NCBI RefSeq assembly: GCF_016903815.1
Contig: NZ_CP069973.1
Length of the DNA stretch: 64,000 nucleotides
Strand: one strand, 5' to 3'
DNA from: Escherichia coli
GTDB lineage: Bacteria; Pseudomonadota; Gammaproteobacteria; Enterobacterales; Enterobacteriaceae
In this document: piece by piece, positions 50,655 through 51,071 of the stretch
How positions within the stretch are numbered: the first letter of the stretch is position 1
How the letters are laid out: the number at the start of each line of letters is the position of its first letter
Program-made: the position numbers and the translations under genes
Notes under the pieces: model-generated
What the model saw: only the letters and a program-made list of their open reading frames with translations
Told to the model about the DNA's origin: nothing
Database searches by the model: none

Positions 50655-51071
50655 TCAGGCAACAAAGTTGTCCTTCAGCGCCTTGAGACCATCCCGATAA
50701 ATGCCGGTAAACAGCGCCTCGGCCTCTTCGTTCGTCACATTCACCGGGGTGAATTCACCGAACCATTCCACACGGGAAACCTGGCTGTCGGCGGTTTCAT
50801 GAACGGTAATGGTGGAGAGGTAATCCACCACCGGGAACGGTGCCTGAATAATGGAATAGGTATAACTGCGTTGACGGTTATCAAACGCTTCCAGACGTTC
50901 AACCACAGTGCCGCCGTCAGAGGTTGTCAGCGAACGAACGCGACCGCCTTCTGTCACTACGCTTTTCGGGATGAACGGCAGCCAGTCTGGCAGCGCATCA
51001 AAGCCGCCCATCAATTGCCATACGGTGTCGGCAGAAGCCGGAATTTCGATCGATACAGTTGTTTTAGCCAT
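50655..51071 (-). CDS. SRPBCC-superfamily protein (polyketide cyclase/dehydrase or Bet v1-like), 138 aa
   Basis: ORF track 138 aa MAKTTVSIEIPASADTVWQLMGGFDALPDWLPFI..., typical SRPBCC ligand-binding fold sequence. Confidence 0.6.
   Translation of the reverse strand: MAKTTVSIEIPASADTVWQLMGGFDALPDWLPFIPKSVVTEGGRVRSLTTSDGGTVVERLEAFDNRQRSYTYSIIQAPFPVVDYLSTITVHETADSQVSRVEWFGEFTPVNVTNEEAEALFTGIYRDGLKALKDNFVA

Follow-up and report, generated by a model that had tools for sequence, protein, structure and literature searches.

In the window, the 64,000-nt stretch of Escherichia coli DNA analysed here, a small gene that RefSeq labels 'SRPBCC family protein' (WP_001140839.1) belongs to a minus-strand row of four genes in the order AKR, SDR, SRPBCC and DUF1471. 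These genes are separated by gaps of 19, 25 and 157 nt, and a LysR-type regulator gene diverges from the first of them (Table 1). The SRPBCC gene had earlier been described as embedded between two reductases, but the order of the cassette places it downstream, on the 3′ side of both. The annotated neighbours in RefSeq run from nadR through a NadS pseudogene, a remnant of an OYE gene, DUF1471, SRPBCC itself, SDR, AKR, LysR and the insertion sequence IS1397 to ettA.

Table 1 Features of the SRPBCC cassette and its surroundings in the window.
Feature	Position	Strand	Remarks
NadS-family pseudogene	49858-49994	+	frameshifted and truncated; immediately follows nadR, on the border of the ~5.7-kb insertion
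OYE/NemA-like flavin alkene reductase remnant	50029..50260	-	decayed; lies 3′ of DUF1471 in intact islands; tblastn and blastn
DUF1471 (YdgH/BhsA/McbA family) small secreted protein	50285..50497	-	70 aa; RefSeq; 157 nt downstream of SRPBCC
SRPBCC (XoxI-type, PF10604) gene	50655..51071	-	138 aa, ATG start; predicted cytoplasmic helix-grip pocket protein
SDR family NAD(P)-dependent oxidoreductase	51097..51894	-	265 aa; RefSeq; 25-nt gap to the SRPBCC start
Aldo-keto reductase (AKR)	51914..52924	-	336 aa; RefSeq; first gene of the putative operon
Conserved non-coding block	53007..53056		abuts the LysR start; putative LysR operator and LysR Shine-Dalgarno
LysR-type regulator	53057..53944	+	295 aa; RefSeq; divergent from AKR
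IS1397 (IS3 family, programmed frameshift)	54125-55473	+	flanked by LysR and ettA

The cassette is an accessory island of E. coli

In K-12, nadR is followed directly by ettA at a distance of 307 nt, while the window carries approximately 5.7 kb inserted at this point. The insertion contains the NadS pseudogene, the decayed OYE remnant, the five-gene cassette and IS1397, and base composition gives no mark of the island. A stretch of 5.8 kb of the window is 100% identical to E. coli strain 7/2 and others. Across 5426 complete E. coli genomes, the SRPBCC gene is found as a single chromosomal copy in 482, and the whole 3.66-kb cassette (at least 80% coverage) is found in exactly the same 482, indicating gain or loss of the cassette as a whole. 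AKR, SDR, LysR and DUF1471 thus accompany the SRPBCC gene in every genome that carries it (482/482), which bears out its earlier description as a member of the cassette. The stretch that includes IS1397 reaches at least 80% coverage in only 96 of these 482 genomes, and this insertion is therefore lineage-specific. Approximately 9% of complete E. coli genomes carry this accessory island, clinically common lineages included; ST405 and ST69 are examples of carriers.

The OYE remnant was compared with an intact 365-residue gene in E. coli E69 (L009:6806-7903). Only residues 3–66 and 275–310 are matched by tblastn, and blastn reveals a 686-bp internal deletion together with a 3′ truncation; part of the remnant is annotated as a partial hypothetical protein in RefSeq. 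In E. coli E69 and Yokenella an intact OYE gene comes after DUF1471, and in Providencia it lies a few kilobases away.

The SRPBCC protein belongs to the XoxI group

The gene evolves under purifying selection (dN/dS of 0.05–0.16 against Enterobacterales orthologues) and is therefore a functional coding gene. Residues 1–136 of its product match the Pfam Polyketide_cyc2 HMM (PF10604) over positions 1–141 of 142, with an E-value of 9.4e-31. The closest solved relatives are XoxI of Bacillus cereus (3CNW) and Q6HG14 of B. thuringiensis (3F08), both matched over the full length at 61% identity (E~1e-52). Judged by this high full-length identity to solved members, the gene is an orthologue of the structurally known XoxI group. 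Both structures were structural-genomics targets; the match gives the family a name only, and our literature searches (XoxI; SRPBCC with AKR and LysR; D-threo-aldose dehydrogenase) returned no functional study of this orthologous group. The protein has the helix-grip fold, in which seven antiparallel strands form a sheet that wraps around a long C-terminal helix. Its N-terminus, MAKTTVSIEIPAS, has no hydrophobic leader, and in the structure model the first β-strand begins at residue 2; neither the sequence nor the model contains a signal peptide.

When a sequence profile of the family is searched against the PDB, XoxI-type proteins rank first, followed by LFS (6e-12), many PYLs (~1e-10) and HNL (1e-9). 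No polyketide ARO/CYC chain is among the matches listed (the best 60 of 67 with E≤1e-3). The earlier note had left the subfamily open between cyclase-type, Activator of Hsp90 ATPase and START-like proteins. The AHSA1 family HMM (PF08327) does not match the protein, nor does that of START (PF01852), a domain of ~200 residues that is larger than the whole protein. Profile and fold searches place the gene in the XoxI / PYL / LFS / HNL branch of SRPBCC proteins, outside the polyketide cyclases, AHSA1 and START. The initial description as SRPBCC (cyclase/dehydrase-like) stands in its first half, with the strong Polyketide_cyc2 match; 'cyclase' is no more than the Pfam name, as profile and residues point to the XoxI / PYL / LFS / HNL branch. 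A Xanthomonas 'polyketide cyclase', XAC1230, is an unrelated, 388-residue secreted SRPBCC-GyrI protein. In NCBIfam, no family exceeds its curated cut-off for SRPBCC, AKR, SDR or LysR.

The same broad Pfam and SRPBCC assignment is shared by MxaD, and UniRef calls some E. coli copies 'MxaD family protein'. MxaD is periplasmic and is encoded in the mxa methanol-dehydrogenase cluster of methylotrophs. The SRPBCC protein differs in having no signal peptide, and no mxa, xox or methanol-dehydrogenase genes lie near its gene in E. coli.

The pocket floor of the PYL/LFS/HNL clade is retained

Among 49 SRPBCC homologues, with identities down to 34%, W18, R46, Y72 and W103 are invariant, and conservation reaches at least 90% at W30, E58, P80, Y84 and F107. 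The polar positions among the conserved pocket residues are R46, E58, Y70, Y72 and Y84. Five of the conserved residues (R46, E58, Y72, Y84 and W103) correspond to the pocket floor of the PYL/LFS/HNL clade. In an hhalign comparison with onion LFS (probability 97.6%), they align with LFS R71, E88, Y102, Y114 and W133, respectively; the LFS sequence used agrees with the published residue numbers and with the PDB match coordinates (57–110 versus 87–140). R71, E88 and Y114 define the LFS active site and equal R75, E90 and Y116 of PYL10, the same triad being conserved in the PYLs (10.1101/142687). Through the LFS alignment, the R-E-Y triad of the PYL pocket floor is thus present in the SRPBCC protein as R46, E58 and Y84. 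In the PYLs this triad makes no contact with ABA and is not catalytic (10.1101/142687), and its conservation is therefore no proof of catalysis in the SRPBCC protein.

The identity of the three residues with Arg71, Glu88 and Tyr114 of onion LFS (5GTE/5VGL) is a likeness in working parts only. LFS, a plant enzyme whose substrate is 1-propenesulfenic acid, has no AKR partner and shares only 21–23% identity with the SRPBCC protein. Nothing hints at a sulfenic-acid substrate in bacteria. The activity of LFS on alk(en)yl sulfenic acids follows that of alliinase, and no alliinase-like gene is annotated near the SRPBCC gene in E. coli. Fern DtHNL (5E46) requires Asp85 and Ser87, whereas the XoxI group has the Glu of the non-HNL subset. 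Glu at position 87 typifies that subset and is deemed incompatible with HNL activity by the authors of the fern study (PMC5413884).

Partner genes in the cassette

Read from the sequence, the AKR has an intact catalytic tetrad (D46/Y51/K77/H140). Its nearest PDB relative is plant L-galactose dehydrogenase (E=1.4e-29), one of the aldose-1-dehydrogenase-type enzymes, and some databases automatically name it 'D-threo-aldose 1-dehydrogenase'. The SDR carries the motifs G14-x-x-x-G-x-G, Y154 and K158; in the PDB it is nearly identical to 8G9M (E=7e-137) and more distantly related to 3T4X (6.5e-70), both uncharacterised proteins. For both reductases the nearest relatives are sugar-dehydrogenase-like, and their substrate may, on this ground, be a sugar or a lactone. 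The earlier note had expected a polycyclic or hydrophobic substrate rather than a simple sugar, an expectation that finds no support in the polar residues of the SRPBCC pocket or in the aldose-1-dehydrogenase-type relatives of the AKR. Among the NCBIfam LysR models, AlsR (220 bits) and PRK09986 (204 bits) match the regulator, all under their curated cut-offs. The DUF1471 protein matches BhsA, RclB and YbiJ weakly in NCBIfam, and its orthologues carry PF07338.

AKR is the conserved partner across four phyla

We scanned genomes with a 10-sequence SRPBCC alignment, limited to a single genome for each species, and retained 80 loci with products of 60–99% identity. The hosts span four phyla and include Enterobacterales, Pseudomonas, Acinetobacter, Stenotrophomonas, Burkholderia, Paraburkholderia, Duganella and a Rhizobiales bacterium, as well as Bacillus, Paenibacillus, Lysinibacillus, Sporosarcina, Streptomyces, Saccharopolyspora and Micromonospora. 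Between E. coli and either Bacillus or Streptomyces, the SRPBCC proteins are 60–68% identical. Neighbours were counted by tblastn with the E. coli proteins, within 3 kb for AKR and SDR. At 70 of the 80 loci, SRPBCC has an AKR orthologue (69–100% identity) no more than 3 kb away and on the same strand; truncated contigs account for two of the ten other loci, leaving eight non-truncated loci that have no AKR nearby. A divergent LysR orthologue (61–99% identity) is present at 57/80 loci. SDR lies within 3 kb at 47 loci, 46 of them with SDR between AKR and SRPBCC, in Enterobacterales, Pseudomonas and Acinetobacter. DUF1471 is confined to nine loci, all in Enterobacterales and eight with the gene directly downstream of SRPBCC, and an OYE gene occurs at 6/80.

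The core unit is therefore AKR plus SRPBCC, with AKR the conserved partner, SDR an option of gammaproteobacteria and DUF1471 an add-on of Enterobacterales only. Co-conservation with the reductases, on which the earlier note had staked its view of the cassette, extends for AKR to 70 of 80 species in four phyla; the weight which that note gave to SDR and DUF1471 as partners shifts to AKR (70/80 vs 47/80 and 9/80). Conservation of the neighbourhood holds both in Enterobacteriaceae and beyond, as the same five genes occur in the same order at other chromosomal sites in Klebsiella and Yersinia. The module is also carried on plasmids of Priestia and Ewingella. Other genes around it vary by lineage, and the locus maps that were read showed no transporter or PKS gene in common. 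Homologues of ~40% identity have differing neighbours (a 2-hydroxyacid dehydrogenase with an HpcH aldolase, or TauD with TetR), and the AKR link is therefore specific to the XoxI orthologous group.

In Firmicutes the module is a bare AKR-SRPBCC unit with a gap of 2–18 nt. At the B. cereus-group loci (L024, L027, L028, L031 and L061), an AKR of 73% identity lies 12–18 nt upstream of SRPBCC, so that an upstream AKR is common to the XoxI-group loci of B. cereus and to E. coli. Unlike the E. coli cassette, the Firmicute XoxI loci examined have no consistent adjacent regulator, no SDR and no DUF1471.

Several loci depart from these arrangements. Five from Pseudomonas spp. (L040, L048, L071, L074 and L083) keep SDR-SRPBCC, while AKR and LysR are absent within 3 kb; these AKR-less loci are at odds with a simple picture of SRPBCC as an AKR partner. 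Paenibacillus sp. BSR1-1 has two tandem AKR copies ahead of SRPBCC (L046:3921-5983), and Sporosarcina sp. BP05 has an extra 91-residue SRPBCC fragment upstream of AKR (L051:4589-4864), with a transposase-like ORF and a group II intron close by. A 2.1-kb contig labelled 'MAG: Collinsella sp.' (L008; JAIJJM010000574.1) is 99% identical to the E. coli SDR-SRPBCC-DUF1471 segment and is most likely a mis-binned Enterobacteriaceae contig. In two metagenome ORFs, the AKR C-terminus runs into an SRPBCC domain, in frame on a 1-kb contig (P0128) or through a frameshifted linker (P0155). As AKR-SRPBCC fusions, these were set aside as unreliable, being either rare natural fusions or assembly errors.

A putative operator upstream of LysR

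A palindrome, GACTTAAGTC, and GTC/GAC repeats occur in the non-coding block that abuts the LysR start. An alignment of 56 LysR-AKR intergenic regions yields the consensus AGACCTC..GGACTCAAGT..ATTATGTCTTGGACGGTC, which spans roughly the first 50 nt upstream of the LysR start and is conserved from Streptomyces to E. coli. We consider this block a putative LysR operator that moves with the module and to which the regulator would bind. Neither a conserved regulator nor an Rfam element precedes AKR at the Firmicute loci. In Bacillus tropicus N24, a fragment of an HxlR/DUF24-type regulator, comprising the C-terminal half only, lies upstream of AKR (L024:4198-4422, minus strand); it is not seen in other B. 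cereus-group loci. The same locus has a long non-coding stretch upstream of AKR that contains tandem repeats.

Discussion

Beyond the fold, clade, conserved residues, gene linkage and mobility observed for the module, we infer operon expression, regulation by LysR, a type of ligand and catalysis. AKR, an NAD(P)(H)-dependent enzyme, would be co-transcribed with SDR and SRPBCC under the divergent LysR-type regulator. Through the pocket-floor residues R46, E58, Y72 and Y84, SRPBCC would bind the small metabolite that AKR reduces or oxidises by its oxygenated end, be this a carbonyl, a hydroxyl or a carboxyl. Its most likely action would be proton transfer, in the form of tautomerisation or of a double-bond or ring-chain isomerisation; alternatively, it would present or sequester the compound. 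By either route, AKR would meet the right species. We therefore tentatively favour SRPBCC as a dedicated AKR partner that binds or isomerises the carbonyl/alcohol metabolite of AKR, a reading drawn from fold and clade, from an invariant polar floor of the pocket, and from a close, mobile association with one AKR under a LysR gene.

A precedent for such a pairing exists in poppy, where neopinone isomerase, of the PR10/Bet v 1 fold, isomerises a ketone so that codeinone reductase, an AKR, reduces the correct isomer (PMC9646721). The two protein types are those of the conserved AKR-SRPBCC unit, and the comparison is an analogy of function rather than sequence, neopinone isomerase belonging to a different Bet v 1 subfamily (PF00407 PR-10) and to a plant alkaloid pathway. 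A broader and more doubtful proposal joins these observations. XoxI-type SRPBCC and AKR would form an obligate two-protein catalytic unit, a counterpart of neopinone isomerase and codeinone reductase. SRPBCC would serve as a cofactor-free isomerase/tautomerase or as a substrate-presenting subunit, with R46, E58, Y72 and Y84 setting the isomer that AKR reduces. The unit would have spread between phyla with its own LysR and operator, and may represent the bacterial stock of plant PYL receptors, LFS and fern HNL.

The main rival, which we regard as unlikely though a serious contender, is that SRPBCC is a non-catalytic ligand carrier or buffer that sequesters or shuttles a hydrophobic or reactive small molecule, be it the inducer or the substrate or product of AKR. 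Many Bet v 1/PR-10 proteins are carriers, and SRPBCC shares the helix-grip pocket fold; moreover, the PYL receptors, among its closest functionally known fold relatives, act as binders and not as enzymes, and their R-E-Y triad is non-catalytic (10.1101/142687). Against a carrier, the identity of 60–68% from E. coli to Bacillus and Streptomyces represents very high conservation across phyla. Invariant polar residues in the pocket would be expected of an enzyme or a highly specific site sooner than of a promiscuous carrier, and the gene keeps tight translational spacing with one enzyme. Kinship to the PYLs would also allow a ligand-gated regulator of the PYL style, in which metabolite-bound SRPBCC modulates AKR, LysR or a phosphatase. 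The profile matches to PYLs at E~1e-10 speak for it, as does a Paraburkholderia PYL homologue that binds plant PP2Cs independently of ABA (PMC12717121). The bacterial PYL homologues tested by others bind no ABA, and plant assays are the only setting in which such proteins have been examined to date (PMC12717121). The SGLPA gate and HRL latch motifs of the PYR/PYL/RCAR receptors are, however, absent from the SRPBCC sequence, no PP2C gene is among the linked genes identified at the 80 loci, and one P. frederiksbergensis orthologue that we looked up differs in accession from the published bacterial PYLs, which include WP_102636708.1 and WP_096480507.1. We consider a regulator of this kind improbable.

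The remaining alternatives fare worse. The earlier note drew its analogy from polyketide aromatases and cyclases, and several findings speak against an enzyme of that kind (aromatase, cyclase or dehydratase) with a polycyclic or poly-β-keto hydrophobic substrate. Aromatase/cyclases such as TcmN, ZhuI, WhiE-ORFVI and BexL belong to type II PKS gene clusters with KS-alpha, KS-beta and ACP, and R66, H109 and D146 are examples of catalytic residues in ZhuI. ARO/CYC chains are missing from the 60 of 67 PDB matches listed, and no PKS, KS or ACP genes are annotated near the E. coli gene in RefSeq or were noticed in the other locus maps read. The module occurs in organisms that have no type II PKS (E. 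coli, Klebsiella, Yersinia), and the arginines of ZhuI do not align with the R-E dyad of LFS that SRPBCC shares (10.1101/142687). This alternative is highly improbable. More improbable still is an SRPBCC-type toxin or ribosome-associated factor resembling Rv0910 or RatA, suggested by a weak NCBIfam match to the Rv0910 toxin (NF047960, E=3e-4). The match covers residues 1–33 only and its 20.8 bits fall far under the cut-off of 100 bits; moreover, no antitoxin-like small gene is paired with SRPBCC, whose conserved neighbour is AKR.

Returning to SRPBCC as a dedicated AKR partner, the module is compact and transporter-less and is sometimes accompanied by OYE and the stress-family DUF1471, and so looks like a conditionally induced unit for processing carbonyls or electrophiles. 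These features weakly suggest an inducible carbonyl/electrophile-processing unit rather than a catabolic or biosynthetic pathway. The theme of detoxification is weak because it draws on guilt by association, with OYE at only six and DUF1471 at nine of the 80 loci.

The SRPBCC protein itself is ordinary, being already annotated and having orthologues that were crystallised in 2008, whereas a cross-phylum AKR-SRPBCC-LysR module with a conserved operator was not found in the literature searched. What our analysis adds is one specific AKR partner that keeps 69–100% identity in Firmicutes, Actinobacteria and Proteobacteria alike, together with a co-conserved LysR regulator and operator-like sequence. 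A 'domain of unknown function' thereby becomes a defined module of two to four genes that is testable in E. coli, Klebsiella or Pseudomonas, and this module could reveal the role that bacterial relatives of the plant abscisic-acid receptors play in their native hosts.
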